A DNA stretch of 53,875 nt, filler included, from Sluysia triapertura (GCA_046118255.1; 4 parts of 4 records of this genome joined end to end with filler, not necessarily neighbours in it); one strand, 5' to 3'. Counted from the whole stretch's first letter, positions 1,417 through 47,380 are shown. Notes: generated by a model from the sequence alone, not told the origin. Made by a program: numbers and translations.

Positions 1417-1503
1417 CCTCGATATAGATTTTATCTTTTTAACTTACTTGGAAAATCCAACGGCTTACCCTAACCGATAAGCCTAATACGTTGATGAACT
1501 CAC
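1417..1503 (+). repeat. Dispersed structured motif, copy 1
   Basis: CCTC box at 1417; core 1452-1503 AAAATCCAACGGCTTACCCTAACCGATAAGCCTAATACGTTGATGAACTCAC. Confidence 0.85.
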
Positions 1504-2224
1504 TAAAGTTTTGCTTTATTCTGTAAGGTTAGGAAAAAACGCAGCAATACAAAATAATGTTTAATTTAAACATTTAATTTAAACTAGCTGAGACTAGAAA
1601 ATAAATCATAAAGAGTTGTGCTATTGTTTTATCTTCAAGGTGTGCCACATAAAGGATTTTGTCGATTTAACTCCCGGTGAGAACTTTCTTGACCAAAGAA
1701 TAATCATGTTTTTCGTCGGTTTTTTCTGATTTTTTGCAGGAATTTCAGTTGTGTCTTGAATATTGTTGTAGAATAATTTGCTTTAGGTCATTATACGCAT
1801 TTTTTGATTGTGAACAGGTTTGGATTACGGTATTTAGTTTGCTAAGTAAGAATTTTCGTAAATTGGCAAAGTCTGGTTCAATTTTGATCTTTAGTGCATT
1901 ACTGAATTTGTTTTAAAGTTGGCTTCTATCACCATAAACCGATCTCATCTTTGAAAAATTTTATGAGTTGTGGCCTTTGAGAGGTTATTGTGGAGAGAAC
2001 TGTGTTTCAATATCACCGCCGACGGATAATTGGTAGCTCAATCAGTTATATTACATTCGCAGAAAATTTGGTGTTCATGCAATGGTCTAATATATGTGTA
2101 TACCATGTATGTTTGTGATTTGTCATCCGATGCAACGAATGCAACATACTTAATACTTATTTTGATAGTGTCGTTGAATTTACTATTTTGATGTATTTCT
2201 TTTGGTTACTTTGTTTCTTGCATG

Positions 2225-2720
2225 TATTGTTTGGTGCATGAACTCGTGCAGTTTTTCAAAATTATGAAAAATGAATACTGATCAAGAATAAGAAACATGC
2301 AAAAAATTCTAGATAACAAAATGAATTTATTAAATCATTAGAAAGTTGGCCATTCAAGAGCTAGGTTGGGAAGTTCTTCCTCATTCCCCGTATTTGTCCG
2401 ACTTAGCCCCAATAGATCTTTTCCGTTCCATGTCGAACCATCTTTCTGGTCTCACATTTGAAAACGAAGAAGCAATAACAACATTAATTGAAGAATGTTT
2501 TGACCAAAAATCACCAAGCTTCTTCAAACGTGGGATTGACAAACTTCCAGAACGGTAGAAGAAAGTGATCGATTGTGGCGGAGAATATCTCACCGACTGA
2601 GACTGAGATATTTGTTCTTTCTAATGATTTAATAAATTCATTTTGTTATCTGGAATTTTTTGAATGGATTTTATTCATGATCAGTATGCATTTTTCACGA
2701 ACTTATGCACCAACCCAATT
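2225..2720 (+). mobile_element. Non-autonomous mariner derivative with ~100-120-bp inverted ends
   Basis: 2225-2345 is the imperfect reverse complement of 2617-2719. The termini resemble mariner TIRs (TTGGGTTGGTGCATAAGTTCGTG), and the interior encodes a mariner transposase C-terminus. Confidence 0.9.
2346..2590 (+). pseudogene. Mariner transposase C-terminal fragment
   Basis: LGWEVLPHSPYLSDLAPID-LFRSM...FFKRGIDKLPER*KKVIDCGGEY matches the mariner HPPYSPDLAPSD and GI..LPERW.KV motifs; the W codon is mutated to TAG. Confidence 0.93.
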
Positions 2721-3332
2721 AAATAGATCATTTTGTCTTTTTAAATTAATTATCGTTGATATTCTTTTTATTTTCTTGGGTTTCTTTTGACATATATACG
2801 AGGTTTGAATTAATTGCTTTTGGGTGTCTGTGTTTTGCTTTGTTATTGTTGGATATTGTTATGGTTGATTTTGATGAAATTTTTTCTTTGTGTTTGACAT
2901 GTTACTTTTAATTGGCTTGATTTAATTTGTAGGCCACGAAGGCACTTTTATTCTTATCTCCATCTATACATGCATTTTATCATGCATAATTTTTAGCGGG
3001 TTTTAAAAAATACTTGTTCGTTGCTCAAGTAAATTGTGGAATCACTTTATTTTGGTTTCTAGGTTCAGTGCTAAGGATGGTATTTTTTTAATGGACTAAG
3101 GAGATTTTTAATGTTAGACCTACTTACAGTTCGCACGTATCGAACTAGAAGCTTTTGGGTGGAAAACCTACATGTCGTATATGTCGTATGGTTTTTGTGA
3201 AAGTGTTTTATTTTTGTAGAATTTTGAATAGACTGAAAATTTTTTGATTTTTTTGGATTTTATTTGAATTTTCTGTGCGTTTTTTGGAATGGCTTTTTTT
3301 GTTATTGTTTTAAGTGCTTGGATATAAGAAAT

Positions 3333-3370
3333 TATCGCACATATCGCATATATCGCACATATCGAATATA
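3333..3370. repeat. 9-bp tandem repeat (TATCGCAYA) x4
   Basis: tatcgcaca tatcgcata tatcgcaca tatcgaata. Confidence 0.8.
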
Positions 3371-5074
3371 ATTAATGTGTTTTAATTATTAAATGCTTTT
3401 AATTATAATTTAATTTTAAATTAATTTTGATGTAAAATAATTACATTCGAAATCATGATGATAAATTATTGCTACGTTTTCTCTAAAAACTGCTGACAAA
3501 TAATAAACTTAATAACTTACGGATTAGCCTGTAGTGTATGATTTATATCCAGCGGAAGACGCAGCTACATGACTTGAATACATAGAAATTCCATTAGAAA
3601 GTGGTTACCTTACTCCTTAAAAATCAACGGTGAACGTTTAAAATACGTATTGACTTTTCCTGAATAATTCCTACTACTATTCCTTCTAACCTATAATTTA
3701 ATAAGTCGAGAACAAACGGGAAATTTTATTAATAAACTAATTTATGCAACTATCAATAATAAAAATTCGAAGAATAAAAATGGATTCAAAGATAATAATA
3801 ACAATAATACATTAAGGTTGCCTTTAATTATTTATAAATACTTACCTAAAGTCGCTTTCATAACAATCGATCATTTTAATTCTGCATGTATTCCATCTAC
3901 TTGGATAAACGTCAATGACTTAGCCAAGATATCGTAATACATTGATGTATTCAAATTCAAGATAATAACCTAATTAATCATCAAGAATATATATAATGGA
4001 TAGCTTGAATATCCTAAGATAAACTATTTTGTATAACAAGTAGTTGGCATTTGAAGATAATATTAAAACAGTAATATACTAATAATTTTAATAATAGTAC
4101 ATAATAATATAATATAAAAATAATAATGATTTTTAGTTTAATTTTTTGAATGAATATTTTTCAGCCTTTGGATAAGAAAATAATGATGTGATACATTAAA
4201 GTATTTGAGGTTTTAAGCGATATAAGGATGATAATAATAATAATAATAAAATTATAAATTTATAAAAAACTTACATAAACATTTATTTAAAAAGGTAATA
4301 ATAATAATATAAAGGCCTAGAAATAAAATATTTGCATTGCAAAAGATCTGTAAAGTCAAATTTATATATACACAAGCACCAAAAATAGTCCTCAGTTATT
4401 AAGTTTTAAAAGTAACCTGGTTAACACAAGTTTCAACAAATTTCTGTTTTGATTATTCAACGACATTACAATTTTTTGAGTTTTTTTGTATGCTTTATCT
4501 TTCATACTATCATTAATAAACACATCTTAGTTATACTAGAACGTAATTATTTTCGTCTGGGTGAATTAAAATTTACATATAAAATTTGTACAATCAAATA
4601 TCTCTATCAACAAAGACGAATTTAATTTCAGCGCAATATGAGTTAAATTGAAACTTTTATAAAGTGATAATTACTGCTATCTATAACCGCATTTAAGTGA
4701 TAGAAAACTCTAAAGAATAATTTTGCTAACAATTAATTATTTACAAAACTTTTGATAACGTTTGCGTTACCAGAGAACAATAAGTTGAAGAATTAACATT
4801 TTACGAATTTTGACTAAAACCGTGGAGTTGCATCCAATTTTAATAAAAATTGTAAATAGGAATTTATTATTATAAATTAATCATTTACATTTTTGACTTA
4901 CAAATAATTTTTTATAATTATAATATTGCTTAGTAAAAGTAACATTTCAAAATTTAAGTTTATCTACACGTTTTGCTCGACATTTGAAATTATTGTGCAA
5001 TAATTAAATAACCTACTTTAAATATGTTTGGTACTACACATCTAACATATAATATTCATTATAATTTTATATCA

Positions 5075-5195
5075 GTAAGTTTGTCTATGATTCGAGTCTT
5101 TCGCAATTAAGGGCTCCTCACAGGATTTTAACAAAAGACAAACTAATGTCAATTTATATATCTTTATGTGACAGAAATCACATATTTTATAGAGG
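5075..5195 (-). repeat. Dispersed structured motif, copy 2 (diverged)
   Basis: Reverse complement of 5075-5129 is AAAATCCTGTGAGGAGCCCTTAATTGCGAAAGACTCGAATCATAGACAAACTTAC, with a CCTCT box at 5191-5195. Confidence 0.65.
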
Positions 5196-5621
5196 TAAAA
5201 TAATAAATACGTTACAAATATTAAAAATTGTTACTAATGGTTTATTAATAGTAACAGAATTTCACACTTAAATGATTTTAATTGTCAAAATAATCTTTTA
5301 AAAAATAGTTTACATGCTTATTTAAAAAAGCTTTTTAAAAATTCAATGTTGATATTACTGCTTTTTTATCTAAACAATAAATGAAATTTATGTTATGAGA
5401 TCGCCTATGACTCTAGTTTTACGGGTTATGATTTTAAAGAATATGAATAAAATTATCGGAGGTCAATTACGAAGATGTGAACACTTTAAAATATTGTCAA
5501 ATATTAAACTGTAAAAACTGTGGATTTGTAATCCACTTTAGAGCGAGATTAAATTAATTTGAACCTTAAAGCCTGACGCAATTCAATTTTTCTCTAAATA
5601 GCGAGTTAAGTATGTGTCATA

Positions 5622-5705
5622 TTTTATTTAGGTTCTTTATATATAGAACCTGCAATGAAATGTGGTTTTACTTAGGTTCCTTATAAATAGAACCCCCAAT
5701 AAAGT
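5622..5705. repeat. 44-bp tandem duplication, each unit holding a GGTTC...GAACC hairpin around a TATA-like loop
   Basis: ggttctttatatatagaacc at 5631 and ggttccttataaatagaacc at 5675. Confidence 0.75.
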
Positions 5706-7091
5706 ATAACTTAATAATTTACATATTATTATACGTTAATTTATAAAGATCAATTAAAAAGTAATTTAATTGAATAACTGTAAATTTACGATTAAAAGCT
5801 TTGTAAAGTTATTAAGTTTCATTAATTACAAGAATTAGATACAATTTTGAATAAAACTTAAACATAACTTTATAATAAACGAATAATGACTGTTATGTTA
5901 TTATTATAAGTAATGATGATTATATAAGGACTAAATATATCTTTAAATAACACTTTAATAAAAACTCAGTATAAATAATGATTATTTTATTAAGATTGTT
6001 ATTATAAACAATAATAATCTTCGTTTGATAAATTTTGAATTAGAAGTTTATTAAAATCGTTTATAAAATATTTCACTTAAAGTCGTGGATAAAATCTTAA
6101 TTAAATACAACTAACTAATAAAGAAAACCGATATGAATTTAGAATTTGTAGAATAATGATCCTTTAGATTTAGCAGATGTAAGTTAATGATAATTCCTGA
6201 CAGAATAGTATTATTTTTTGTGTAGTCGATCTTTGAGAAATTAAATTAAATGATTCTCGATATTGAATTAAAATATTTAAAATTTGTAAAATTATCGTTG
6301 TGCTTATTGAACGTGAAATCATTACACTTTGACCTTAAAATATCTACTTAATGATTCAGAGTATTATCAGTACTTTTATTTTATATAAGATATTTATTTT
6401 TGCACTTTTATTTTGAATAAAATATTTTATTAAACTGTTTGATAATTTTATGTTGATTTTTAACAAAATAATTAAATCATTTTGTAATAAATCTAACAAT
6501 TCATTTTCCAAGTCTATCTAAATTTAAACAGTTGACTTTGTGCGTATTTATCTAGGCAATTGATTGTCTACATAAATATTATTTGATTTTGCGTGCATAA
6601 ATGATATTTGAAATATTTATCGTTTTATTTGAAACATTTATTGTTTTACTTTGAAATATCTATTGTTTTATTATTTAACGTTATTATTTGAATAATTATT
6701 GTTGGAGGGCTTGTTTACTTTGACAAATTTTCATTTGCAATTTAGTTGCAAATTTAGGGAATTAGGTTTGAACTCTTGACACCAATTTGGGGGATTTGGT
6801 TTTGTTTGTAGACACCAGTTTAGACATTTTAGTTTATATTCATGACATGAAATTAGGTTATAAAGTTTGATTTCTATACACTTATTTAAGGTATTATTGC
6901 TTTGAATTATATCATAATTTGACATGGTATATTTGATGGCCGAATACCACGTTATGACCGAAATTTTATAATTAAAAGGTTGTATTTTGTTGAAATTTTC
7001 GATTTTATACTCTATATCTTCAAAGTTTGTCACGAACTTAGTAAAATATATTAATAAGTTTATATTTAATGAAATACTAATGCGTTTTGTT

Positions 7092-7127
7092 AAAACCTAA
7101 TGAGTCGTTTCTATTAGGTGAACTCGC
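7092..7127 (+). repeat. Dispersed structured motif, copy 3 (internally deleted)
   Basis: AAAA-CCTAAT-gagtcgtttct-ATTAGG-TGAACTCGC; the outer stem is retained with a different sequence. Confidence 0.6.
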
Positions 7128-8130
7128 CTTCAGAATTCATTCATTGTGTAAGTATAAGTTTAAACTTTTAACACAAACACTTGCAGATAATTACAAATTG
7201 TGACTGTGTTTATGTTTGGAATGATTCGAATATCTTGTTTAGCATTTTATTTGTAAGAAATGGTTTGTGATGAAATGCGTTTATGATTGCGATGTGTGGT
7301 TGTGGATAATATTATATTTATTTATTTGGATTATTTTGTTTTAAATCTTATCAGGGTCAAAAATCTACTATAAATATAGTAGATATTTGTAATAGAAAAC
7401 ACAATAAGATTACAAGATTTTGTGACAATTAAATTCGAATTCTATCGCAGTTTTTTCTTTTGAGCTGAAAAATATCTGTACTCTTTAGTTTGTTTTATTT
7501 AAATTTTTTGTGCTTTTCATGTACATTTTTGTAAATTTATTATTAAAATCATTTACTTAAATTTTCGTGGACCATTTAAAAGGTTCACGGTAAAATCTTT
7601 TTAAACGATCAATTTTCTATTTCTATTAATGGCCACGTTGTCATTAATCAGATAAAATTTATGACCTTGATATATTCTTATAAACTGTATAAAATTTTTA
7701 TTGGTGTTGTTGTTTAATACATCTATATGCCTGTATAATCGTTCTTTTATATATTGAAAAATAATCTGATCCTATTTAAGAAGGATTATTTGTAACTTTT
7801 ATAGTTTCAATCTATTTAAATTAGATTACTCGCATTAGTTTTTAAATCCGAATTTTTATATTGGATATATCGAATTTATAGATCATATTTAAGAAGAATC
7901 TTTCGTAAAATCTTATTTAATAACTTAAAATCTATTTAAAAATCCACAGAGAATTATATAAACCCCAATAATTTTTGGACACTATTATTAAATATAGCTA
8001 CGGAGAGTATAAATTTTTAAGGATTAGAATTCATTTATTTTTGTCTAAAGAACTGTACATTTAAATTTGTTCATGCATTTCAGTATTAAGTGCTATTAAA
8101 AGTTGCTTACAAGTTATTAACTAAAATAAA

Positions 8131-8215
8131 CCTCCAGTAATTTCACATTACTAATCCTCTTAAATTCCTACTGACTAGCTGTAACTCGTAAGACTAGGAT
8201 CGTAGGTGGACTCAC
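8131..8215 (+). repeat. Dispersed structured motif, copy 4
   Basis: CCTCCAG at 8131; core AAATTCCTACTGACTAGCTGTAACTCGTAAGACTAGGATCGTAGGTGGACTCAC. Confidence 0.85.
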
Positions 8216-9246
8216 TTAATATTTAGACATTTCTGTTAGTAATTCGTCTTCATAATTTTTTGACAACTTGATAATATTTTTAATATTTTATTTAATAATC
8301 ATTATTTTTATGCCTATATACATAAATACAAATATAAAAATCCTAATTAAAACATTTACATAAATAATACATAATACATAATTGCCTGGTAAAGTACTGA
8401 TGATCGTATTAGGTTTCTATAACAAACATTTAAAATCTTTAAAAATGCAAAAATAGAGTTAGTGTTTTTGAAAAAAGAAACTAAAAAATTCTAGAATTCT
8501 ATTCAGTTTTGATTGGCTACTAGCTGACTACAGTGAATCATAAATCATGATAAAAATTCATTATTTAGTATCATTTTTGTCTTACAGATTTTCAACATTA
8601 TTCATCCAAAAGTCGATTCGGTGTCAGGGAAATTAGTAGCAATCATCGGAAAATTTTATTATTATTTAGTAAGTTATTTTATTGTTAAGGTGCTTTCGGA
8701 TTAAACTCTCATTTTAAAACATTTTCAACAACTCCTATTTAATGAGGGAAAAAATTAAAATTAAAATTTTTAGAATTTAAATTAAATTTAGTGATTGATT
8801 GAATAAAAATTATTTTGTTCGAACTTGTTAACAAGATATTTATATTTTTAAATTATATTGTAATAATTTAAATTATCATTATTGCTAAGTATAAAATTAA
8901 AATAACACACTTGGTTTAATATATTTATAACAAATTTTAAATTTACTTTAACACAATCAGAACATATTTAGTAATCATAATTAATAGGCACTAAAGGATA
9001 TTCATAACACAAAACGTAAATAAGAGACATAGGATAAAAAGAACATGCTTTGTGGTTGTGTATTTAGATGGTAGGAATTTAAATTAACTTGTTTATCTAA
9101 TAGACTAATATCATTAAATTTAAGAAACATATAAATTAATTAAAGGATTATTTTCTTGTGCTTTACAAATACTAATTATTCTTTTATTTTTTAGAATTAA
9201 AGGAATATAAAATCTAAAAAATGAGTATTATTATTTACAAATATAT

Positions 9247-12558: not shown

Positions 12559-12581
12559 TAATTTATTTTATTATCTTAATA

Positions 12582-12671: not shown

Positions 12672-14083
12672 GTGTAAAGTATTATATTGTGTTTATCATA
12701 TAATAAAATCGTCGGTAAGCGTTTAGGCCACCACAAAATTTACCTTCAAATATTTCTAAATTACTTAACACGTTTTTAGTTTCACTTTTTTATATATTAT
12801 ATGTATCCAATGGTTGTATCCATTCTCATTTCTCAATGTCTATTCGATTTCAATAAATATAATGCATGCGTAAACATTACTTCGTTTAAATCAAGATTAT
12901 AACTATTATTATTCTAATTATTGTTTTTTATATTATCATTTTATAATTTTTCTTATTTTTATTTTTATCAATCTTATCATTATTGCTGTTATACAATAAT
13001 TTTGCTTTTTAATGTTTAAATATGTGATCAAAGAACAATATTTTTTAAATAATAATGGCAATAAAATTCGAGACGCCTTAAATTTATTATTTAATGGACA
13101 ATTTTGATGAACCAGTTTAAGTAATAGCCATGATCGTAATGTTGAGTATTAAATATGTATATTAATATTCTGTAAATAAATATAAATATAAAATTTAGTT
13201 ATTTAAATATTAAAACTTTAAATTGTTTTAAACGATGTAATTAAAATTAAAATGACAAATAGTTAAATATTGTTGTGATGAATCATTTTGAATAACAATT
13301 TATGTTTATTATTTATGACTTTTATACTTGAACAATTTATAAGTCATTTAAATATTTTGTAATATTTTGGATTTTATTAAATTTGATATTTTAATTATTT
13401 TGTAATTTGTAATATTTTGGATTTTATTTTATGAAATTAATGATAAGTGGATAAAATTTTAATAGTAAGTTATATTTTGATATTTTAAAATTAATATTTT
13501 AAGTAACTAATATTTTAAATTTTGTTTTAATCTTACTTAATCTTAAAATTAGGTCAAGGTTGACAGTTAGAAAACTATATAAGGTACCACAATCTTCATA
13601 AAAGACACAATAATAACAGTTTTAAATTGTTAATAAAAATTTTAATTACTCGCAGCAATAAAATCTTAATTCGTGGATCAATTTTGATAACTTAAATATA
13701 AAAACCTGACAGTTCAATTTTGAAGATTTCAAAAGAAGATTTTGGTTCATACTTTCTGAAAAAATACGATCTTTTAGCTTATTTTTATTAAGGGTGATAT
13801 TATTTAATATCAGTGCAAAATCAAGGAAAATTTATTAATTTAATATTTATGATCTTATCATAGATCATTGTAAAATCTTTTTTTAATTTATATTTGATAT
13901 TAAAAATTACATCGATAATTTATGCAAAATTTATATTTTTATTATTATGTTGCTATTTTCCTTTATATAAATAAATATTCAAGAAAAAACAAGTGTTGTG
14001 TTATAATATAAGAAATAAAATAATTTTTGATTAAAAAATTAAAGAATCCTCATTTTAAAGTTGAGTAGGATAATATTAGATTA

Positions 14084-14205
14084 CCTCCAGATTTCTAGTT
14101 AGGAAATCAATCGAAGTTTTGTGAATTTATTGAAGCATCTCTTCTTTTACGTTAAAATCCAACGTCTGGCTCTCGCTGGTAAGTCCAGTACGTTGGCGAA
14201 CTCAC
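14084..14205 (+). repeat. Dispersed structured motif, copy 5
   Basis: CCTCCAG at 14084; core AAAATCCAACGTCTGGCTCTCGCTGGTAAGTCCAGTACGTTGGCGAACTCAC. Confidence 0.92.
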
Positions 14206-14268
14206 AGCTTTAAATTTAAATTAATTATTAGCGTTTTATTCCCACAGTAAGATAATTTTTTATTTTGT

Positions 14269-18945: not shown

Positions 18946-18949
<4 letters not shown>

Positions 18950-21468
18950 ATATCTCATACAACCATAAAATGAAAAAATTTCTTCAACACACTTTAACAC
19001 AAATGAAATATTATTAAACGAAATACACAATAATTACCAATCGAATCCATGCAAACTTGTGAATAAACACCACCCTTATGTTTCATTTCAAGTGATTGGG
19101 ACGAATATTAAAATGATTATATTGTTCGTATCATCATTGCAACATATCCACAATATTGGTTTCATCATTCATTTTGATGAATGCACTTGTAAAACATTTG
19201 GTACCGTAATATTAAAATAGTTCATATTGAAATTGAACTGATAATGTAAATGCGAATGTAACTTTCGTCCAAAAACACATTTCATGGGAATTGCATATTC
19301 TTGGCTTATTATATTTATATTCTATTGCCTCAAAATGAATCAACAATAACAATATTTTGTAATAATATAACGATAATAAAATAAATTTATAATAATTAAA
19401 CTTCGTTGGATAATAAAACCTTGAATTTCGAATATTAAAACGTCGTATAATTAAAATAATTAAACCTTGTTGGATAAGAAAAGACAAAACCTTTTGAATA
19501 ATAAAATAAAACATCGTAATAAATTAGTAATAAAACTAAACCATTAGTTACTTAATTTCGTTACATTGAATATATCGCTATATATTTATTTTAGTTATTT
19601 GTATATTTACATCAGTATAATTTATTCGTAATCATATTTTAGTGAAAAAGTAAATTTCAGCAGTTCTTTTATGTATCTGGAATTTTTGAAAAGAAAGTAA
19701 AGTGAAAAGTACATTAAAGTTATTGTTTTCGGGTGTATGATTTATACACAGTTCAACTCATTTGTGTGGCAAGTTTCATTTCCAGAGGAGTACTTAAAGA
19801 AGTTAATTATATTAAGAACAGTTAAATATAACTACAAAGTTAATTTTTAATTACAAATTTTAACTGATAAATGAGAAAATAAAACTTTTGCGTACATAAT
19901 TTACAATTAAAAAGCGTTGATATTGATCAAATTGAATTTAGACCCTTTTAAATACTAGAATTAGTTATGAGATGAATTGTATAAGTACGCCTCTCGAAAA
20001 CAGCATAAATAGTCCACAATAAGCTTCAGATTATTTTTTGAGTAGTTTTCCTTTTTAATGGAAACACCTTCATTTATACAAAAATGAAAAATATCTATGC
20101 ATCAACAAAGAAATCATTTTATTATATTAGTCATTTTAAATTTAATCAATGCAAATTAAATGATTATTCATAGGTTATTTTTGTAAATGATAAATGCAAA
20201 GTTATGAGTTACAAAAACCAATAGAAAATATTCTGTATCTAATCAGAATTCAAATTCATACAAACTTGTATGACCGCATTTAGAATGGACAAAACATTGA
20301 ATTTATACAAGCTATCATCTAATCTTGGAATCTAGTACAATTTCTCAATAAATAAATTACTTGTATCGAAAATGGTTAATAAAAATCATGGAACGGAGAA
20401 ATTACAATATTATGCCACCTAATAAATGGAATTCTGTTTCAGTGTAATTTTATTTTGTTTAATATCTTGAGTTAAAATATTGGCGTTGACCTTTACTATA
20501 GGTTAATTAAAATTAAATAAATACCAATAACATTTTTTAATACCAATCTCAGAAAAGAAACCCAAAACTTTATATAAACTAATATAAACCAACATAAAAT
20601 TAATACCATTATACCAATAGGTCAAAACCAATGTTACTGGCACCAAATTCAAATTTAAGCTGACCGCTCTAGATCACTATTTTCACAAATAACTCATTTG
20701 CTAATTTTAGCTGTGTGAATATTTTCTATAAACTATACTTTGTACTTTTATTATATAACCTTTGTATTTGTGATCAAATTTTCATTTTCGAATTAATCTT
20801 TAATTATCGATATGGTTTATTCAGTATCAGATAAAATTTTGACCCTCCGCAAATATAAAAATTATGTATGTAACCTGAATTCTTCATATAAGCTTATATT
20901 GCTGAAAAAGAAGCATTTTTGTACCCTTAAAAGAATAAAATTATCAATAATAATTAAAGACTAAACGACTTTTATTATTTCTGATTTTATTTTAACACTT
21001 GGTGCGGGACTTATGGGTGCAGCAGACGTTTCTTGATGTGTCTCGCAGGAGTTTGATCATAGAGTAAAATCATCAAAAGACCAACTAACTCGACAAATGA
21101 AACCTCTGGGAATAAACAATTTATAGAGTTACCTAGCAACACAAAAACAGAAATAAAATGCTAATAATATTTATACGATATTCGCTGTTTCGCTCTCCAG
21201 TAGCAGACTGGGAAAAACGTAAAAGAAGGTTGTGAAGAATTTCATAGATACATTGTTTGTCAAGTATCATAACAATATGTAGTTTTGCTGCGTTTGATAA
21301 AACATATCCCTACAATTTCAAAGTAATATTTACAAAAGCGTGTTTATCTTTAATCTACTGATTTCTATTGTGATAATATTCAAGTGTAGATTTTGTATTT
21401 TGCTCTTGCAGTTATAATTGTGGGGAAAGCAAAGTAAAGATGCGATAGGATAAAGCAAAAGTTTTAAC

Positions 21469-21614
21469 GTGAGTCCACCAACATACTGGACTTACCAGTT
21501 AGGGCCAGCCGTTGGATTTATAAAAGATTTTTAAAACTGAAGTGATTTCTTAAAAGAGTCTTACTACAAGGACTCCGTATTTTAATTATTTTATTCAGTG
21601 AAATTTTCTGGAGG
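21469..21614 (-). repeat. Dispersed structured motif, copy 6
   Basis: Reverse-complement core AAATCCAACGGCTGGCCCTAACTGGTAAGTCCAGTATGTTGGTGGACTCAC; CTGGAGG at 21608-21614. Confidence 0.92.
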
Positions 21615-23479
21615 CATTTAAATATTCAAATTTAATTATTTATAAATCAGCTAATGTCATATTGATAGTTTACATGGATTCTGTGAATAAAGATCTTTAA
21701 TAAATAGTTTACGAGGTTATAATTAAAATCTAACAAGGGAAATCTTTCTGAAGTATAAATTTTATATTTAAAACTATTTAATTTAATAACAACTTTATAG
21801 AAATTTTATTAGACAATTAAAGATATAAGGATATAATAAATTACACAAATTGGATAATAATGAAATGTATTACGATGGAATTATTTATTATAATTCGATA
21901 TCATGAAATTTTAATGATAGATTTTGCGGGGTCTATTATAAAATCCAAACAATTATTAAATAATTTTAGTGGATTTTATGAGGATATCTCTTGGATATTC
22001 AAACCTTAATAAAAATAAACTAATTATTTAACAAAAGTATCTAGCAAAGTAGGAGTTTGAATGTACTGCTGCGTTCCAACGATTACAGAAATCCTGATAA
22101 AAATTATGTCTTAACAAGCTGAAAAATCTGCGTCAAAAAATCCAATCAATTAAAAATTGCGAAATGAATATCGTATCTTTACAAGTTGTAAAAAATTGTG
22201 AGATAGCATGATTTATGCATTCCTTATTTATAAATTTTATTGACCTTGGCCAGATCATTCTTTTAAAACAAAATTTAAAATTCAATTTAATAAAACAAAA
22301 TATGTATAGATTTTTTAAAAATAATTAATATTTACAATAAAAATTCAATATATATTTAACGTACTGTTAATAAAAATAATAGTCCCGAATAAATATCCAA
22401 AATTAATTCTTTAATTCCGTATCAACATCAATAAATTATAAAATCATATAAAACTCATATAATACAAAAGTCCTTTAATTCTAAAAATTTATGAAATCAA
22501 CATCAATAAATTATAAAATTATCAATATCATTAATTTACATCAAGGTCAAAATATCATCGTTAATTTTATATCATCATTAATTTTACATTACATATTTAT
22601 AGATTGATATAATTAAAAGAATTTTTCTCATACTTACAAATAACACATGATAACAAATATTTTTGTCTATCACTTATAAACATCTAATTATTGTTTTATC
22701 GTGCATAAAGAAATTCTTAGTACATATGAATGAAATTAATAAGTCTTGGTTCTTAAAACACCTATGACCATTGGTTAATTATTAAAATTGTTTTTAGGTA
22801 GCCTTAGGTTCCTGGCAATCAATAAATATACTTATTTCGATTTGTAAATAAATAGATTTAATTTAATACTAAAATTTCATAATAAAATATGTTTTGTTTA
22901 TTTTAAATTAAAATTTTGATAAACAAAATGGTAACACATTTTATTCATATTTAACTTAAATACATTTTAATTATTTTTATGAATAAACAAATTTGCAAAA
23001 TATGTAATACATGCAAAATATATAAAACTTATTAATATTTTAACAAAATATATTTTTTATCTAAATTTATTTAACTTACAAAAATGTATTATAAAATTGC
23101 CATCAAATAATTTTATCGTTAAAATAACGTCAACAGTTAGGTAGTGGTTTTAGTATGTTATTTTAATCTAAGCAATGGAAATATTTGATATTAATATTAA
23201 AAGTGTTGTAACATTTATTACTTTTATAAAACAAATTTCTATTCAATGTTATTCTGTTTTTCGTGAATGTGAAAGAATAATATAAATGAATCTAGTAGTA
23301 TTGAAACTATTATAAAAAATTAGAATCCTTAAAAAAAGAAAAATTACGATAATGAAAAAATAATTTGCTGATAAAAATAAAGTGACATTTGTAAATCATT
23401 GGGTGATTCAATGTTGTGAAAATAATAGTAAATGAATAATTAAATATTATATATTTAAATCATTATTTATTTATTTATA

Positions 23480-26525: not shown

Positions 26526-26567
26526 TCTGTGAGAATAATAAAAGCAAAGTTTATTTAAAAACTTATT

Positions 26568-26667
26568 GTGAGTTCACCAACGTACTGGACTTTAATGTAA
26601 AGTAAGAGTTTAACTAAGTTCGTTTAACAATATAAATCGATGTCAGTTATATGTCTCAAATCTGGAG
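26568..26667 (-). repeat. Dispersed structured motif, copy 7 (5' half of the hairpin deleted)
   Basis: GTGAGTTCACCAACGTACTGGACTT at 26568; CTGGAG at 26662. Confidence 0.85.
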
Positions 26668-27017
26668 TTGTACTATCTGTATTCAAAAAATAATTTATTA
26701 AATATTAAAAATTTAAATGAGATTACGTAAATCCCGTTATACGGGATCAATCAAAGAGATATTACTTACTAGAATTACAATCTAGTGTTTGAAAACTGAT
26801 TAGGTATTTTAAAGATTTTATAATAAATAAAAGAAAATAATTTAATTATTCAATAATTTATTTATTAAATAATACAAAATTAACAATATAAAAGTGATGA
26901 TATAATATAAATTTTGCCTTTAACTAGGTATAACTAGTTTCACAATGTTCAATAAATTTTAAAAATTGATTTTACTTTGAACCCTTATATGGTTCAGTTA
27001 TATATTAAAAATTTTAA

Positions 27018-35043: not shown

Positions 35044-35128
35044 GTGAGTCCTCTATGATACTGGGCTTATTCAATTAAGGGCCAGCACATATATTTTTGC
35101 AGTTTTAACGAAAGATAATTACTGGAGG
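35044..35128 (-). repeat. Dispersed structured motif, copy 8
   Basis: Reverse-complement core AAAATATATGTGCTGGCCCTTAATTGAATAAGCCCAGTATCATAGAGGACTCAC; CTGGAGG at 35122-35128. Confidence 0.85.
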
Positions 35129-36200: not shown

Positions 36201-36232
36201 ATACATATATATAAATTCAGCAAATAATTAGG

Positions 36233-36310
36233 CCTCCATAAATTATATCTTACTGTTAAAAATCCAAGTCTACCCCTAACTGGTAAGACTAGATACCTTG
36301 GTGAACTCAC
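36233..36310 (+). repeat. Dispersed structured motif, copy 9
   Basis: CCTCCA at 36233; core AAAATCCAAGTCTACCCCTAACTGGTAAGACTAGATACCTTGGTGAACTCAC. Confidence 0.9.
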
Positions 36311-38682: not shown

Positions 38683-38698
38683 TGATCCCCAAGTAGTT

Positions 38699-39330: not shown

Positions 39331-39435
39331 TATTTTTAAATCCCATCCTGTCCATAATAGCTAATCTCTTTGCTTGTAATTCATTTAAGGTTCCCTTGGC
39401 TAATACATCTAAAATAGCCGAAATCTCCTTTAGTC

Positions 39436-40145
39436 CATTTAAGTTTTACATTTTTCTTTGTTAATTTCCTGAGAGGATGTGCGATTTTTGCGAAATTTTT
39501 TTACAAACCTTCTATAGTAGTTGGCTAATCCCAAAAAGCTCTGAACCTTTTTAACATTATCTGGTTGAGGAAATTTAATTACCTTTTCAATATTCCTTGG
39601 ATTTGGTTTAATACCCACCTTTATATACTATATGTCCTAAGAATTCAACCTTTTCTTCCGCCCATACACATTTCGTAGGTTTTATTTTAAGTCTTGCGAC
39701 TTCTAATCTTTTTAAGATATTGTCGAAGTCTTCTAGATGAGTCTTAAAATCTTTTGAAAATATTATGATGTCATCTATGCATACCATGACATTTTTACAT
39801 CCTGATAATACAAAATTCATACAACGCTGGAAAGTCGCTGGTGCGCCGGTATAATTCGTATAATTCGTTTCCACACATGAAAGTTGTTTTGTGTTTATCT
39901 TTTTCTGCTATTTCAATCTGCCAGTATCCACTTTGTAAGTCTAAAGTTGTAAAATACGCAGCATTACATAGTTTATCCAACATCATAGTCTGTTGGATAA
40001 AGTGGGAATGTATCTTTTCGTGTTATCTTATTCAATTCTCTGAAATCTATACAAAATCGCATTGTGCCGTCCTTCTTTTTAACTAGTAATACTGGTGATG
40101 AAAATGAAAAGAAGCTTGGTTGTATTATTCCAGCTTTTTCATAGT
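39436..40145 (-). pseudogene. Ty3/Gypsy reverse transcriptase, frameshifted and internally deleted
   Basis: [60 protein letters not shown] (YxDD mutated), FLGHIV and VQSFLGLANYYRRFV. The MPFGL motif is deleted. Confidence 0.96.
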
Positions 40146-40709
40146 CAATCTTGTAGTTGATTTTGTTAATGTTGTTTGTAAAATAATACGATTAAGTGTT
40201 ATGTTAGAATTAGGCGTTATCAAAGTCTTTGAGGGTTTAACTTTAAGGAAAAAATAAATATATCGACAAAATTTAGACTTACTAATATTATAAACAAAAT
40301 TCAATAGTTTGAAAACCTTAATATTAAACTGTAAGAGAATATACGTCTTTAAAAACCTATAGAATGTTAATTCATCTTGACTATTTATGTCATCGTTATG
40401 AAAAGATATTTCATATTGTGAAAATTTGACCACGACTTTGTAATTGTCATCTTTAGGTTTTATTTTATCAACGTCGCGTTCAATTTCTTTAGATACCTTA
40501 TTGAAGTTTTGTCTGTTGTGCAACTTAACATCTTTATTAGTCCTTATGTTATTAGTTTTAAAATCCTTTTGTATTATTCTAATATTTAAATTAATATCTT
40601 TACATATATGGAATAAAGAACGAAGCCTAAAACATTTGACAAAATGATTTATTAAAATTTCTAGTTTACGTAAAATTATATACATTGACTGCTGTACACA
40701 GAATGCCAC
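40125..40709 (-). CDS. Orphan 194-codon frame between the BCH fragment and RT
   Basis: Long open frame in AT-rich DNA; no gag zinc knuckle or D(T/S)G protease motif is visible. Confidence 0.3.
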
Positions 40710-41362
40710 ATCTCACCATCCCAAGATCTAGTTTCGTTACTAAAAGTCCTACAATAAATAAAATACAAATATTTACAATATACAAGGATATAATTAAAAT
40801 TCAATGTTAATTTATTACTTGTAAAACCTCCGTAGTTTCCATCACCTTCTTCCAATTTGTCATCAAATGGTTCATATTTTTCTTCCACGTCGGCTTCACA
40901 AGTGAGCATTTGATCTAAACAAAATTCAGTTTCTGAATCCTTCAACCTTTCCACCTTTACAATCTTTCTTCTTACTTTTATACTGAACAACGGCGGTAAT
41001 GTATTGATAATAACTTTCAGTAAATTTGTTGGATGAACAATGAATACACTTTTCAAATTTTTCTTGAGATCTCTATCAATTTCTCTAAATGCATTTATCG
41101 AAAATCGTATATCAGGATTATATTTACTGTTTAAAGCATAATGAAAATATACAAGAGGATAATCATTAGATACAGATTGTTGCAAAGTTTTAGCAATATG
41201 TTTATATAAGCGAATGAGATTAATTTCATTTGTTGGTGGTACACGACACGCATAAAATACTATTACCTTCTCTTCTGATTCATCATCTCCAACTACTTGA
41301 GCAACATTTAACTTAACAATTTCCTGAAATTCTTCATTAATCATATCTAGTGTCGTGATCAT
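40676..41362 (-). pseudogene. Intronless BCH/CRAL-TRIO_2 domain copy of an ARHGAP1 (p50RhoGAP)/RhoGAP68F-type gene, without the GAP domain
   Basis: QVVGDD..EKVIVFYACRVPP, DYPLVYFHYALNSKYNP and AFREIDRDLKKNLKSVFIVHPTNLLK align with ARHGAP1 EVAGDD..RKIIVFSACRMPP, DYTLLYLHHGL and AYREFDRKYKKNIKALYIVHPT. Confidence 0.9.
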
Positions 41363-41766
41363 CGATATACCAAATTCTTTGTCAAAATGAGCTTTAAAAG
41401 GTTAGTTTCGGAAATTATTTCAACCGGACTTTCTAACTGACAACATGAAACTAATTTATCTGGCAATGATTGCAAATTATTTTTACTAACATGTAATACC
41501 ATCAAATTAATTAAAAACTCGATTGCATTCGGGATGTTACACAGTTCGTTATCACTTAATATCAGTTCATGCGATGAAACACAACAAAATAATTCTTTCG
41601 ATAATTCTGAAATGTTGTTATTGTCAAGATTAAGTACTTCTAATGAACGTTCGTGATTAAATATATCTGTAGGAACTTGACGAAAATATCTGCTGGAGTA
41701 ATCTAACACTTTGACTTGAGGTGTCTTATGAATACAGATACGTTTGAGAAAACTTTTCTTTATCAT
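41359..41766 (-). pseudogene. Intronless N-terminal LRR fragment of a LAP-family (Erbin/Densin/Lap1-type) gene
   Basis: LDYSSRYFRQVPTDIFNHERSLEVLNLDNNNISELSKELFCC...LSDNEL..IP.AI..LINL..L.VSKN aligns with Erbin [42 protein letters not shown]...LINLRELDVSKN. Only about four LRRs are present. Confidence 0.88.
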
Positions 41767-42208
41767 TAAGTTTTATCGACTGATCAAACCCAGAAAATAT
41801 GATTTCTTTATTTACTATCAACAAATTCTGATTTCATAATATTATTAATAAATGATTGTAAACTAATTTTAGTTATGTTTTGTTCACCCAATCAGAGTGT
41901 TGATATTGGTATATTTTCTGATTAGTTTTATTATTCTCTGATTGGGTGATATCTACTATCACTGTAACGAACGAAGAAAAAGACTGATGGCTAACCGCCA
42001 TCAATACTGACAGGTCAATATTAACATGAAATTGGCTGTCAGCATTGGTGGTGGTAGCAACCAGTGCTATCGTCAAATTTTTAGTTTAATTGAATTTATT
42101 ATTATTTAGAAAACAAAATGGCGAATAATGAACGATATTAATGATTAAAAATAATAATAATAACAATAACGAAATAGTGAAATCATTGTTATTATTATTA
42201 TAAGATGA

Positions 42209-42308
42209 NNNNNNNNNNNNNNNNNNNNNNNNNNNNNNNNNNNNNNNNNNNNTTAATTAATTAANNNNNNNNNNNNNNNNNNNNNNNNNNNNNNNNNNNN
42301 NNNNNNNN
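42209..42308. other. Assembly gap spacer
   Basis: 44 N + TTAATTAATTAA + 44 N. Confidence 0.98.
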
Positions 42309-43284
42309 ATTTTCCAAAAAATAAAGTTTTTAATAATAAATCGTAAAGACTTAAAACGATGACCAAAAAATTCGAATTTGGAAATTCTAAAATCTTTTCT
42401 CGATTCGAAACTTTTAAAATTAAAGATTTAAAAAATATCAGCAATTCAATTTCAGGCTTTGTAGCATCCTCTCATATTAATTTTGATATAATTCTAATGA
42501 TTAGATGATTACTGTTAAATTGTCACCGGCAACACTTTAATACTGCAAAATCAACTTTGATTTAAGCTTATTTTCTAAAAAAGAAAATTCCTTACTAAAA
42601 ATAGAAAAGAAGTTTCTAAAATATTCCAGTACATTCTAGAATTATACTTGTTTATGAGTGACTATTGGTTAATCATAAAGCTCAATTAGTTGTTAAGTCT
42701 CCGTATTGGTTAATCAGATTCTCCATCTTGCTTTTGGAGAGGTTCTTGAGCTGGTTCATTAGTGCAAATAATATTGTTGGCTGTACAATTCTACAATTTT
42801 ACAAATTCGCAACTTGGATCGCTGACAGTGAGCTAATTGATCAATTTTTGTCCAAATTTCTATATCAAGTTTAAGTTGCTTTATTTTCCTCGAGGACATA
42901 AAAATATAAAAATCAACTTAAAATTTCTGTAAAAGATATTTTTTACCCGATGTAATGAGGATAATAATTTATAATTAAACTTATTTATATATTGAAAAAA
43001 ATTAAATATCCAACTTGATTTTAATTTTAAAATATTAATTATTTTTCTTTGTTCTGACTATCGTATTTAGTATCGTATTTAGTTATTTCATTATTATGTT
43101 TTTATAAGTTAGGGGTTTTTCGATTATTATTATTATAAGTGAGAACAATAACGAAAGTGTAATTCATAGACTAAACGTAAAGTGCAGTTTTAATAATTTT
43201 TAAGATGGATCATTGATTTGGTTGATTGAGATCATCAAATTGTTAAGACTCTTTTAATAGACGCTAAGATTTCCTTAGTTTTAG

Positions 43285-43380
43285 TTATAGGAACGTCCTT
43301 TTTACGACATATGACGTTTTCTGTAACCGGACCCGGTTCAGTTTTATTTTACCACAGTTTAGGAATTAAGAAAACAAAAA
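43285..43380 (+). repeat. Repeat family C, copy 2
   Basis: Aligns with the reverse complement of 26430-26525. Confidence 0.8.
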
Positions 43381-44130
43381 TTTTTTGACCTCAAAAGGTC
43401 TATTTTATTATTATGTTTATTATTATTTAGTTATGATTATGATGATTATTATTATTATTATATATCAGCATTAGTTTATTTCTTTTCTCTAATATTTCTG
43501 ACCTGACAGATCATAAAAATGCTTCAAAACAATTATTAAATTATCCAACCTTAAAAAACTATTTTAATGTTTAAATATAATTATTTGTTGATTAAATATT
43601 AAAAAGTTATGATTATAGAAAACATTCAATATTTTATTTCAGTAGGCATTTTAAATGTTTCTGCAGTATGTGGTTTATATTTAAAATCTTTAGTGTGATC
43701 GTTGGTGTTGAAATTTAGGTTGTTATAGATATGTAAAAAAATGGAACTCATATGATTACATGAAAAAATATTGGTGTTAAAATATGTTGTTATGGTGTTA
43801 TGAATGTTGTGTTTAATTGTGAACTGAGCTCACCACATAAACTCCCCCCTATCAAAGGAGAAGCGTAATGAATATTTTTCTGATCTTTAATTACAAAGGA
43901 AACACATTTTCGATTATCAAACAATTTTATATTGTCTAACAATATCGACATTTTGCATTGTTAAAATTATTTTAAAATTATTATTTTCCATAACGAATAA
44001 AATATTTTATTATTTAACGATTTTTAAAATAAATTATTTCTACAAAAATTGTCAGTAATAAATTCAATCGAAACATATATTGTTTTAATTATGATTTCTT
44101 GAAATGACTTAGAAAATAAAAAATATTCAG

Positions 44131-44360
44131 ATGTTGGACCAGCTAAAATAACAACGTCTGCAAAAGCATTTAATAGATATTTAGACATGGTATATACTCA
44201 GGGTGGTGGTGATTGCCCGGAAATGACTGTCAGTGGTATAGAGATGGCTTTAGAGGCTGCAAGACCAAATTCATTAATATACGTTTTCACAGATAGTAGT
44301 GCCAAAGATTATGAGAAGGCGAAGCGTGTTATGAATTTAATTCAAAAGAAGCAAAGTCAG
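44131..44360 (+). CDS. HMCN1: Internal coding exon of a hemicentin (HMCN1/him-4-like) gene, N-terminal VWA domain
   Basis: Acceptor ttcag|AT at 44130/44131 and donor CAG|gtctgt at 44360/44361. Translation (D)VGPAKITTSAKAFNRYLDMVYTQGGGDCPEMTVSGIEMALEAARPNSLIYVFTDSSAKDYEKAKRVMNLIQKKQSQ matches hemicentin QGGGDCPEM...IYVFTDA..KDY...LIQQKQSQ. The symbol indicates family, not tested orthology. Confidence 0.93.
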
Positions 44361-47265
44361 GTCTGTGTTTAATAATATAATTAAAAATGCTTTTTTTAAA
44401 CGTATTAAGTTTAATTAATTGTTAAAACATTTATTTAAAATATTCTTTCATGTGTTATTGAAGCACGAAAATTAAAAATAAATAAAATTATATTACAACT
44501 CAGGATAATATTTATTAAATCTTCCATTTTGAATTAATAAAGTTATTGACTGATATGGAAGACTAAGATTTCATATTTAAGGTTTAATATAGAAAAATGA
44601 AGATTTTTCTTTTATTCATTTTTGAAACTACTTATTTTAGTGACGCATAATTTTTTATTAAGTTTTTTTATTAATTTGTAGTAAAATTAAAAATAATTAA
44701 AATAATATTTTTACTGTCATCGCGATAAATCATAACTATTTTTATTTCTATTTTTATAAGCTTGTATAAATTACTTTTTATTAGTGTTCCGATTGTTTTT
44801 GGAAATATTTCTTGATAATTTTTTAAATTTCTGTGCTTTCAAACATTTCTGTAAGTGTTTGAACAACCTCAAAAAAGTCAAGAATAAGTTCTGGGCTATT
44901 TCTGCAGGTAATATACAAAGTTTAAATATGAAACATAGTTACACAAAAGACACACTCATTAAATTTCTTATTGATAAATTCGTATACTTTTTTTATTTGT
45001 ACTAATCCACTACTTTGTTTACATTAAAAATCATACTTAATAATTGCATGCAATAGGAATTCATTTTTTCTACAATTTTTGGTCTCTATTCACATAATGG
45101 TTTATCTAATAATTCAAATTTTAATATTATCAAAGTTATCTATCTATATAAAACAGAAATTAATGTTTAAACAATTGTTACACATTGAGTAAACAATTAA
45201 CTAAATACATTAAATGCATTAAGCCCAATACATTGAAAAATTCAAGCTCAAACTTAGTAAATTCAATACTTATATTTCTTCTTCAAACAATTCTGAATAC
45301 TTTCTTATGTCAATATATTAATAACTGCTCACGAAAAATATACTTATAATAAATATAAATAATTATACTTTCAAAAAAATTCTGTAAAACGTTACTATTT
45401 CTCCATATCTTTAAGTTACTTTATAATCGATTCTCAACTTTAGTCAATACGTACTTTATTCCTCAATAATACTTTAAATATTTTCACTTATATAAATTAT
45501 TGTTAGTCATCAACAACCTAAACTCTTTATTGTTTTACTATTTTATTAATGTTTATTTATTCTATCTAGAAGTATGAGTTCGGATACTCGTTCCGATGAC
45601 TTGGAATGGAAACTCAAAAAATATGTCGTAAGTTTATTTTAAGATGAAGTTCAATTTACTATACAAAGATTAATAATTTTAATCTTTGTCACAACTGTTG
45701 TTCTTTGATTATGATTTTATGTTAATTTCTTTTTTTGAGAAACTACTCTCAGAACACAAAAAATTCAAATACGAAAATTTATTAATTAAATACTTTATAC
45801 AAAAAACAGTAACACTAAAACTCATAATAATGAATATAAATATATACTGAAATGTATGTTTATAACAATTTTAAACTGGAAGTACAATAAATATCATTTA
45901 CTTAATCGACAATAACTATAATTAATTTTGATTTGTATCTTTGATTTCGAAATGTTAACAGTTGATCCTACACATTATTTTCAGATTTCTTTTTCAATTT
46001 TTCAATACCAAGAATGAATTTTAAGTGATCTTCTCAAGTCTTCTTTAATTTAGTAATATTAATGATTAATCTTCCATGGAATATGCAGCAATATTTTCCC
46101 TATACTACTCCTCGTAATACTGTTTGCAATAACTAATAATCAATCGTCGAATGAGTTGTCAAATATTTATTCGTGCTATTTATAATAGTTTTATTATAGT
46201 TTAAATTATTTAATTTTCTAATTCATTTAATTATTTATTTAATTATTTAATTCATTAGTTATGTTACTATAATAATTTCATAATAATCATAGTAAGTGAT
46301 GGTTATAATAATTCGATTTGTATGTTGTTATCATTTCATTTGTTAATACATAATGTTAACGTGTAAATAACAATACATTTATAAATGTGTATCTATTATA
46401 TGATTAATTTGCTAACTTTAATATTGGTTTTTGAAATGCGTCTACTAAACAACCATAATTGTGTAATTTTATTGTATATGTTAATGTGTCTTAATTAACT
46501 TTATTATTGATTTTGAATAATTATTAATTTACTTTATTTTAATCAATTTACATTTTGAATTTTATTTGGAAATTTATTTATAATTTTATTAATTATTTTG
46601 GAAATTTATTAGCTCAATGGTGAGTCTTATTTTAATTAAACTTTTATTAAACTTTTAATTAAACTTTATAAATAATTTTGTTTAAATAATTAATGTAAAG
46701 TAACATCTAAGGTTAATAGGCAAAAGAATATAAATAGCACTATAGTTAACATAATTTTCACAATTTTTTTAAACACAAATTTGGTCAACTTATTTGTTAC
46801 ACCATTAAATCTTTGGAACAAACAATTCTTTCGCCTATTAGCTCAAATAATTGTATACGTTAGTTTGTTTTCTTTAAGGCAGGATATTTTTTAAAAATAT
46901 CGTTGTAAAATTCACTCAAAATCTTTTATCCATTTAATTTTTTTTGTGATCTTGAATATATCATTGTAAAATCATCTTTAAAATTTTAGTAAAGTTCGAA
47001 TTACAATTTGTAAAACATATTATTATTATTATTATTTTATTGTTTTATTTCATAATTTTTTTGTATATAATAAATATTCGTAGAAGAGAAAGCATTGACT
47101 TTTATATAATTATAAGGAAGAAAATCATCGATTTAAACATAAAATAGTATTGAGTTTTTTGATTAAAAAGAATAAAATCGCTAATTGAAAAAATCCTCAT
47201 TACAGGATTGTGTAAAATACTTCTTAAGTAAATAAGACAAGCTATAGTAACAATAACTGTAATAG

Positions 47266-47380
47266 CCTCCAGATTTTAGTTAGGAAGTCATTAAACTTTT
47301 TAAGACTTTAGACACATTTTATTTACGTAAAATCAAACGGCTGGCCCTCGCTGGTAAGTCCAGTACGTTAGTGAACTCAC
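47266..47380 (+). repeat. Dispersed structured motif, copy 10
   Basis: CCTCCAGATTTTAGTTAGGAAGTCA at 47266 (shared with copy 5); core AAAATCAAACGGCTGGCCCTCGCTGGTAAGTCCAGTACGTTAGTGAACTCAC. Confidence 0.92.

Follow-up and report, generated by a model that had tools for sequence, protein, structure and literature searches.

A structured core shared by many diverged non-coding repeat units in the genome of Sluysia triapertura

Background

Among self-cleaving ribozymes the hammerhead has its core amid three helices (PMC4209133), the hepatitis delta virus (HDV)-like ribozymes combine five helices with a nested double pseudoknot and a catalytic C (PMC3774820), twister forms the pseudoknots T1 and T2 through its L4 loop and has a U-A cleavage step in L1 (PMC6154101), and in hatchet the 5' hairpin P1 is linked by three conserved bases to the stacked helices P2 to P4 (PMC6561176). 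We describe a structured element in a 53,875-nt stretch of DNA from Sluysia triapertura (GCA_046118255.1; four parts of four records joined end to end with filler, below called the window, to which all positions refer), where ten copies of a hairpin motif are located near one end of diverged non-coding units. We favour, with a probability of about 40%, the explanation that this motif is an RNA signal of non-autonomous units which would be copied through RNA by a partner retroelement.

With regard to mobile elements, plant long terminal repeat (LTR) retrozymes have a 4-bp target-site duplication (TSD), a primer-binding site (PBS) and a polypurine tract (PPT) (10.64898/2026.07.22.740005), and Penelope-like pseudo-LTRs show 5' truncation, partial tandems and a link to an open reading frame (ORF) with reverse transcriptase (RT) and GIY-YIG (PMC8557442). 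Helitrons are recognised by a 5' TC, a 3' CTRR, a palindrome about 11 bp from the end and an A/T target, Helentrons and HINEs by 12-15 bp subterminal inverted repeats (subTIRs) and T flanks (both PMC4067079), and Replitrons by short direct terminal repeats (PMC10288648).

Results and discussion

Nested stems with compensatory changes

The motif is real, highly abundant and structurally constrained, and it is larger than first described. A first-pass annotation had listed ten dispersed copies of about 52 nt, and all ten were recovered at the same coordinates and on the same strands (10/10, Table 1), together with the stems it named, both outer (CCAACG/CGTTGG, CCTAC/GTAGG in copy 4, CCAAG/CTTGG in copy 9, TATG/CATA in copy 8, CTGTGA/TCATAG in copy 2 and CCTAAT/ATTAGG in copy 3) and inner (CTGG/CCAG, CTAG/CTAG in copy 4, TCTA/TAGA in copy 9 and GAG/CTC in copy 2). 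Throughout, the strand first read, on which the motif ends in CTCAC, is called the CTCAC strand and its complement the opposite strand; all alignments were built from the ten window copies of one genome. A degenerate pattern matched six times in the window and gave 0 matches across 100/100 dinucleotide shuffles. The profile built on eight copies recovered nine at E<=6.6e-7 (following match E=6.2), and a covariance model from nine copies, copy 7 being untrained, returned exactly the ten at E<=0.0025 (following match E=0.15).

Among nine aligned copies, 6/10 stem pairs were changed on both sides; none of 500 shuffles reached the level of paired cells and one in 500 reached the pair count, while a slid control (+2) also had five double-changed pairs, yet just 37.5% paired cells. 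The opposite-strand alignment of eight copies had 6/15 double-changed pairs (7/500 shuffles had as many), and a neutral star-phylogeny simulation produced 2.2 distinct compensatory events on average, compared with six observed (P=0.008), with the proviso that one G-C/A-U pair was overlooked via a tie and that a star phylogeny ignores relatedness among the copies. The double substitutions exceed the shuffled, slid and neutral-simulation controls, in agreement with the proposal that two nested stems are kept by compensatory changes. The fold also appears to have been kept across several parent lineages, as had been suggested: cores are 55-90% identical in pairwise comparison, and the flanks of the same copies are 45-75% identical, mostly at background level. 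The further argument that G-U wobbles within the stems favour the CTCAC strand fails, because nested-stem wobbles occur on both strands, with five cells being G-U on the opposite strand (three of them in copy 1).

Mutations are known to arise by quasi-palindrome correction, and the paired changes might be unselected, with template switching perfecting palindromes in an old, very abundant repeat. While weak folding of single copies and a null result with RNAalifold are in its favour, this leaves unexplained the near-invariant unpaired bases amid background-level flanks, the fixed distance to the unit end and the long-range pairing that depends on G-U, and we consider it very improbable.

Long-range helices and the predicted fold

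The motif is probably on the strand opposite to the first reading. Viewed this way round, the tail is a leader of 9 nt that sits at the base of the hairpin, with the CCTCCAG box 19-88 nt downstream, and box and tail pair with each other and with the loop through G-U pairs which are A-C on the CTCAC strand. The strand and the size claimed for the motif are not supported; box and tail had been taken as unpaired. Leader bases 6-9 and the box (4 bp) are paired in 37/40 cells (28 Watson-Crick and 9 G-U), and leader bases 1-5 and the start of the apical loop (5 bp, eight copies) in 39/40 cells (30 Watson-Crick and 9 G-U). All 18 G-U cells of these two helices, nine in each, are A-C on the CTCAC strand, where leader-box pairing drops to 29/40 and leader-loop pairing to 30/40, and where no 4-mer of box plus tail is fully paired. 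The leader-box helix toggles from U-G to C-G in copies 4, 6 and 8 and has one double change, in copy 2. What supports both predicted helices is conservation and wobble; their covariation is not significant.

Taken together, the likely fold predicted for the opposite strand is a pseudoknotted three-way junction of about 110-190 nt, and the near-invariant junction and loop bases, variable peripheral helices and 19-88 nt spacer would fit a folded RNA. For the helix closing the module, cognate flanks outpair permuted ones with p=0.012-0.16 on the opposite strand and 0.04-0.22 on the CTCAC strand (five lengths), and the predicted fold of copy 9 includes both this helix and the leader-box helix. The strand bias in folding of whole units is weak (mean z -0.65 vs -0.41, background -0.14). 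The leader reads GTGAGT in eight copies, while copy 2 has GTAAGT and copy 3 has GCGAGT; all three sequences resemble a splice donor.

Abundance and families

Abundance was estimated as summed contig depth over 13600-15100 at 80% likeness in one public run, X1, which is possibly the source of the window and so not independent. No RNA data set containing the window turned up, a result that carries no information on expression. The core reached 372,691, the remaining copy-5 unit upstream 680-3,960 and the unique flank 10.9, i.e. ratios to the unique flank of about 34,000 for the core and at most 363 for its own flanks, although summed depth is no copy number and the estimates are rough. This suggests some 10^4 cores genome-wide and a few hundred copies per family, and the core and flank identities given above agree with the depth contrast; judged by its sequence, each window copy belongs to a separate repeat family. 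With regard to the parts said to be kept in primary sequence, the CCTCC box is the exact CCTCCA in 6/10 copies and a variant in the other four, and the loop is conserved only in part, as 84% of the depth in X1 has the base of copies 5 and 10 at 14175, not the base of the claimed consensus. Copy 5 itself seems to lie within a larger composite (~13600-14466) of ~20-30 copies, with a depth of 244-465 on both sides, and a small inverted-repeat element abuts its TGT end.

Comparison with known ribozymes

A search of Rfam with the window and three single copies (E<=10) gave no relevant family. The earlier failure to fit hammerhead, twister, pistol or HDV consensus was borne out by this result and by descriptors for hammerhead, twister and HDV-like ribozymes, which were self-made and used without a positive control; pistol and twister-sister had no match in the Rfam scan at E<=10, with no descriptor search made for these two. 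The hammerhead core motif is CUGANGA plus GAAA: no such core was found inside any module on either strand, nor GAAA in the conserved columns, and a lone core word is located 180 nt beyond copy 10. The HDV-like descriptor gave no strict or relaxed match in 20 strand-windows and no strict match in the whole window. While variable linkers are shared with the HDV-like ribozymes of R2 and RTE elements, and the dominant loop variant on the CTCAC strand resembles the HDV L3 motif, the covarying inner stem is incompatible with the double pseudoknot and the module is not at the start of the unit. For hatchet, neither an Rfam match nor a conserved hairpin lying 3 nt upstream of the stem was found. Twister is similar in having a closing helix, an internal loop, a 4-bp helix, a junction and a terminal loop which pairs back to the internal loop (PMC6154101), but 20 strand-windows contained no L4-type loop of 8 nt with a 3-bp closing stem, and there is no UAA beside the 4-bp helix; here a loop of 15-17 nt sits on a 10-bp bulged stem, one pseudoknot is predicted instead of two, and the U-A cleavage step is absent.

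The module may nevertheless be a putative self-cleaving ribozyme of a new class, processing the unit RNA in the way that the hammerheads of retrozymes and Penelope repeats do. Invariant bases in the internal loop, junction and apical loop, the predicted pseudoknot and variable outer helices would be expected of one, the terminal loop of twister likewise pairs back to an internal loop (PMC6154101), and terminal repeats of retroelements do carry ribozymes (PMC4209133; 10.64898/2026.07.22.740005). Set against this are the lack, at all copies, of a match to the HDV-like, hammerhead or twister-loop descriptors and of any Rfam ribozyme at E<=10, and the position of the unit ends off the module, so that it is not evident how cleavage would define them. 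Most classes of ribozyme have members in phages, prokaryotes or metagenomes too, and no structured match was found in such collections: pattern scans gave 0, 1, 0 and 11 matches in viral contigs, 0 and 0 in prokaryote genomes and 28 in metagenomes, and a phage BLAST search none, with the limit that exact-pattern scans would miss diverged relatives. The one viral and 28 metagenome matches (29) are close to chance expectation, and both stems were present in 0/11 matches of the last viral scan vs 5/5 window matches; the best of the 29 (L005, 28 bits, partial stems) was rejected because a 240-aa open frame encloses it, on a contig with 58% GC. On balance we see the ribozyme as unlikely, and the same word applies to the fuller version, a new self-cleaving class with a pseudoknotted three-way junction in at least 100 families with TGT...ACA ends and no TSD, present in tens of thousands of copies.

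Other candidates were set aside by inspection against their standard definitions: a spliced-leader RNA gene (exon side not conserved), an attC site (AAC/GTT lost in copies 2, 3, 4 and 9), a telomerase-template loop (minority variant only), a primer-binding site (just 6-7 nt kept) and an IS605-type right end (box not terminal). A literature search, covering few subscription papers or Repbase Reports, found no description of the motif, and the repeat itself may already be catalogued.

The carrier units

What the first-pass annotation had missed is that every copy forms the subterminal portion of a longer, fixed-ended unit: the copies lie 40-55 nt inside one end of non-coding units of roughly 470-790 bp, the ends of which are inferred and not taken from empty sites. 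On the CTCAC strand an ACA is found 39-55 nt past the core in 10/10 copies (background 26%; the range was chosen from the five copies with CYCACA), and CYCACA is present at that end in 5/10 copies (background 0.3%). A common far-end block is located 430-730 nt upstream of the core on this strand in copies 1, 4, 5, 6 and 10, and probably also in copy 2. In the window it occurs solely upstream of cores, and it opens with TGT in copies 1, 4, 6 and 10; the terminal TGT of copy 5 is missing in the window and is present in three loose ends of run X1, where the depth rises. No TSD of 3-9 bp was found in the five units with both ends in the window (copies 1, 2, 4, 6 and 10), where the best 5-bp flank matches were 0, 3, 2, 3 and 1 of 5, respectively, with a 2-bp TA in copy 2. 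There is no terminal inverted repeat (TIR) beyond 3 nt, the primer-binding TGG is absent at 10/10 ACA ends and 5/5 TGT ends, and no purine tract was seen beside any of the 15 ends in the window.

The units contain extra covarying hairpin modules near the TGT end and mid-unit, which consist of differing, fully paired stems of 5-9 bp with an AT-rich loop, followed by a GTAAAAT-like motif. All have the same orientation, and 8/10 window matches fall within the 7.4% of strand space upstream of cores (0-3 in shuffles); the pattern was designed on copies 1, 2, 4 and 10, and the two matches of copy 7 are new. On the opposite strand AATAAA is present ~15-25 nt from the far end in 4/5 aligned units. Read inwards, the ACA ends of copies 5, 7 and 10 are TGTGRGAA, identical to the CSL/Su(H) binding consensus, which may be coincidence. 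A mosaic (template-switch) origin of the tails was unsupported, the flanks being merely diverged.

The TG...CA ends, the size of 0.5-0.8 kb and AATAAA near one end are reminiscent of solo LTRs, and the units could be those of many Gypsy and BEL families, with the leader acting as a hairpin-held splice-donor or U1 site controlling splicing or polyadenylation. The donor-like leader in all ten copies and the thousands of LTR elements in planarian genomes (PMC6431247) would go with this. Solo LTRs of Ty3/Gypsy and BEL/Pao have a 4-6 bp TSD, whereas no 3-9 bp TSD is present in 5/5 units and neither PBS TGG nor purine tract adjoins the ends; the units have a core in common although the rest of their sequence cannot be aligned between families, there is no conserved acceptor downstream, and pairing also accounts for the conservation of the leader, so we hold this origin to be quite improbable. 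Retrozymes and Penelope pseudo-LTRs differ from the units in other ways: there is no hammerhead core, the ends are fixed and not 5'-truncated, each copy belongs to another family without tandem or inverted copies of one family, no ORF with RT and GIY-YIG is present in the window, and the 4-bp TSD, PBS and PPT of plant LTR retrozymes are all absent.

The lack of a TSD in 5/5 units and of a TIR beyond 3 nt also fits non-autonomous DNA transposons, for whose TSD-free movement an HUH enzyme (rolling-circle or peel-and-paste) or a Crypton-like tyrosine recombinase would be responsible, in which case the hairpins would be single-stranded DNA or palindromic binding sites. The repeated palindrome modules in one orientation, with 8/10 matches in 7.4% of strand space, agree with this, as do the hairpins at the ends of Rep transposons in general (PMC10288648) and the animal Cryptons CryptonA and CryptonI, which lack terminal repeats and have abundant short non-autonomous derivatives (PMC3212892); the missing TSD also matches Crypton and DIRS/Ngaro elements. 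No recombinase is linked to the units, however, and a structured RNA-like module is not described for animal Cryptons in the available part of that source (PMC3212892). The non-autonomous Helentrons (HINE, DINE-1) share very high copy number, no target modification, hairpins near both ends and a conserved core (PMC4067079), but here there is no inverted match between unit ends, the flanks are not T-bounded and the ends are TGT and ACA. Similarly, Helitron ends are absent, the hairpin being 48-64 nt from the end without a target dinucleotide, and so are the direct repeats of Replitrons, the longest common end words (four units) being 4-7 nt, AT-rich and non-terminal. No HUH or recombinase enzyme was found in a Pfam scan of 136 window frames. 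HUH enzymes are not known to read a fold as elaborate as a pseudoknotted junction, and we regard movement as a DNA transposon as possible, if on the doubtful side.

Weighing an RNA intermediate

In the explanation that we favour, the core of many diverged non-coding TGT...ACA units would fold, on the opposite strand, as a pseudoknotted three-way RNA junction. Transcription of the units would run from ACA to TGT, and a poly(A) signal would lie close to the TGT end; proteins of the partner retroelement would bind the folded RNA, and the bound units would be reverse-transcribed and inserted without TSD. The missing TSD points to a partner whose integration leaves no duplication, which may be of the tyrosine-recombinase or Penelope type. 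The predicted fold exceeds the known hairpin signals of DNA in complexity, which speaks for RNA, and so, weakly in an AT-rich genome, do AATAAA near the far end and the donor-like leader on the opposite strand.

Several results weigh against this explanation. Partner permutation of the leader-box helix gave p=0.20 with hardly any covariation, the leader-loop helix has zero double changes, the closing-helix signal comes chiefly from copies 9 and 10 after five lengths were tried, and a spacer helix was not significant (P=0.07). Folding z-scores were just -1.8 to +0.5 for five whole modules on both strands and -3.5 to +1.0 for single copies, and RNAalifold found no consensus structure in a MAFFT alignment; such moderate folding and the RNAalifold null are expected of decayed copies, yet call for caution. 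Since G-T also beats A-C in single-stranded DNA, the strand asymmetry is no proof of RNA, and AATAAA is frequent at 76% AT (15% per 45 nt). TGT...ACA ends normally accompany a TSD and point to an integrase, which conflicts with the missing TSD. The Pfam scan found Gypsy RT/integrase, THAP and pogo-like pieces, and no recombinase, GIY-YIG or HUH domain, and the alignments come from ten copies of a single genome.

Table 1. Copies of the motif in the window. The module comprises leader, nested stems, loop, variable spacer and distal box, and is listed on the inferred functional (opposite) strand.
Copy	Core (CTCAC strand)	Module (opposite strand)	Unit	Remarks
1	1452-1503 (+)	1417..1503 (-)	935..1551, whole, 617 bp, TGT...ACA, no TSD	decayed; hairpin modules at 969, 1027, 1328
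2	5075-5129 (-)	5075..5195 (+)	5025..5723, probably whole, 699 bp	most diverged stems; sole double change in leader-box helix; far end from TGT and hairpin module at 5694; weak similarity to others
3	7092-7127 (+)	7009..7127 (-)		apical loop lost; ACA end 7173-7179; far end not found
4	8162-8215 (+)	8131..8215 (-)	7477..8265, whole, 789 bp, TGT...ACA, no TSD	compensated stems; good flank closing helix by eye; hairpin module at 7566
5	14154-14205 (+)	14084..14205 (-)	13774..14246, about 473 bp	dominant genomic type; depth peak in run X1; depth step 13753-13803; hairpin modules at 13795, 13849
6	21469-21519 (-)	21469..21614 (+)	21419..22033, whole, 615 bp, TGT...ACA, no TSD	longest spacer (88 nt)
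7	26568-26592 (-), half	26568..26668 (+)	26528..27017, ACA end to assembly gap at 27018	half of hairpin deleted; hairpin modules at 26939, 26997
8	35044-35097 (-)	35044..35128 (+)		ACA end at 34993; far end not found
9	36259-36310 (+)	36233..36310 (-)		shortest spacer (19 nt); best closing helix; ACA end 36364; truncated past box
10	47329-47380 (+)	47266..47380 (-)	46852..47435, whole, 584 bp, TGT...ACA, no TSD	strong closing helix in flanks; hairpin modules at 46881, 47190

Neighbouring elements

The window has 24% GC and few long frames, and ten of its ORFs are absent from the protein collection searched. An exon at 44103-44372 encodes a hemicentin vWA domain, with best matches to flatworm proteins (76-79% identity; 53-55% with other animals), which places the host among the flatworms; judging by base composition it may be a free-living planarian. 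Three identical gap linkers of 100 nt (12459-12558, 27018-27117 and 42209-42308), each of 44 N, TTAATTAATTAA and 44 N, are assembly artefacts, the second of which interrupts the copy-7 unit. A separate repeat end is present in five copies, at 8441-8556(+), 14347-14481(+), 15165-15219(-), 42571-42678(+) and 47521-47659(-), and consists of an array of heat-shock-element-like words and an inward TATA-like box, preceded by a TAGGTTG block which we take to be hAT-like. Three of the five are within 350 nt of the ACA end of a unit, and depth suggests a few hundred copies; it was rejected as part of the units (it lies beside copies 4, 5 and 10) since copies 5 and 10 have it in opposite orientations and it is also found on its own.

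The region 9247-11399 (-) contains broken frames of 251, 137, 128 and 92 aa with only a sub-threshold CCCH zinc-finger match; for the longest, 1.84 billion representatives contained no relative and the Atlas gave no match, and the orphan ORF at 10028-10780 was dropped as a mobilising partner as it has no relatives. Intronless leucine-rich repeat and CRAL-TRIO frames at 40676-41772 (-), directly upstream of a broken Gypsy pol (38296-40191), are possibly captured mRNA pieces, and a search with the CRAL-TRIO frame gave no match. Transposase remnants comprise Pogo/Tigger-like pieces, a THAP domain and a mariner-like piece (23900-25073 (-), 32152-32544 (-) and 2334-2558 (+)); the last, presumably mariner-like from its motif alone, is accompanied by 81-bp inverted repeats at 2265-2345 and 2617-2697. 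Furthermore, there is an isolated long inverted repeat at 41979-42069 with a pre-miRNA-like shape and just a sub-threshold Rfam score, a 90-bp GC-rich element at 12582-12671 resembling a miniature inverted-repeat transposable element, with 13-bp TIRs starting CAGTGG and an internal hairpin, and at 48165-48236 (+) a tRNA-like head that passes the Rfam gathering score without being called by ARAGORN and is likely a tRNA-derived short interspersed nuclear element. Two repeats occur twice each, at 26459-26529 (-) and 43282-43354 (+), and at 14715-14862 and 26286-26429, with the copy at 26459-26529 starting 5 nt past the ACA end of copy 7.

Conclusions

Structured cores common to many repeat families first revealed several ribozymes and transposon groups, and the motif described here is a structured cis-element of a repeat superfamily outside the classes tested. 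Its carrier combines integrase-type ends with the lack of a target duplication, and fits no transposon class tested. We put the chance that the predicted fold represents a new ribozyme class at roughly one in six; if it does cleave, an animal genome would have yielded a new class of catalytic RNA, and if it does not, it would still mark a repeat that is among the most abundant in this genome, and would provide a handle on the enzyme that moves it.

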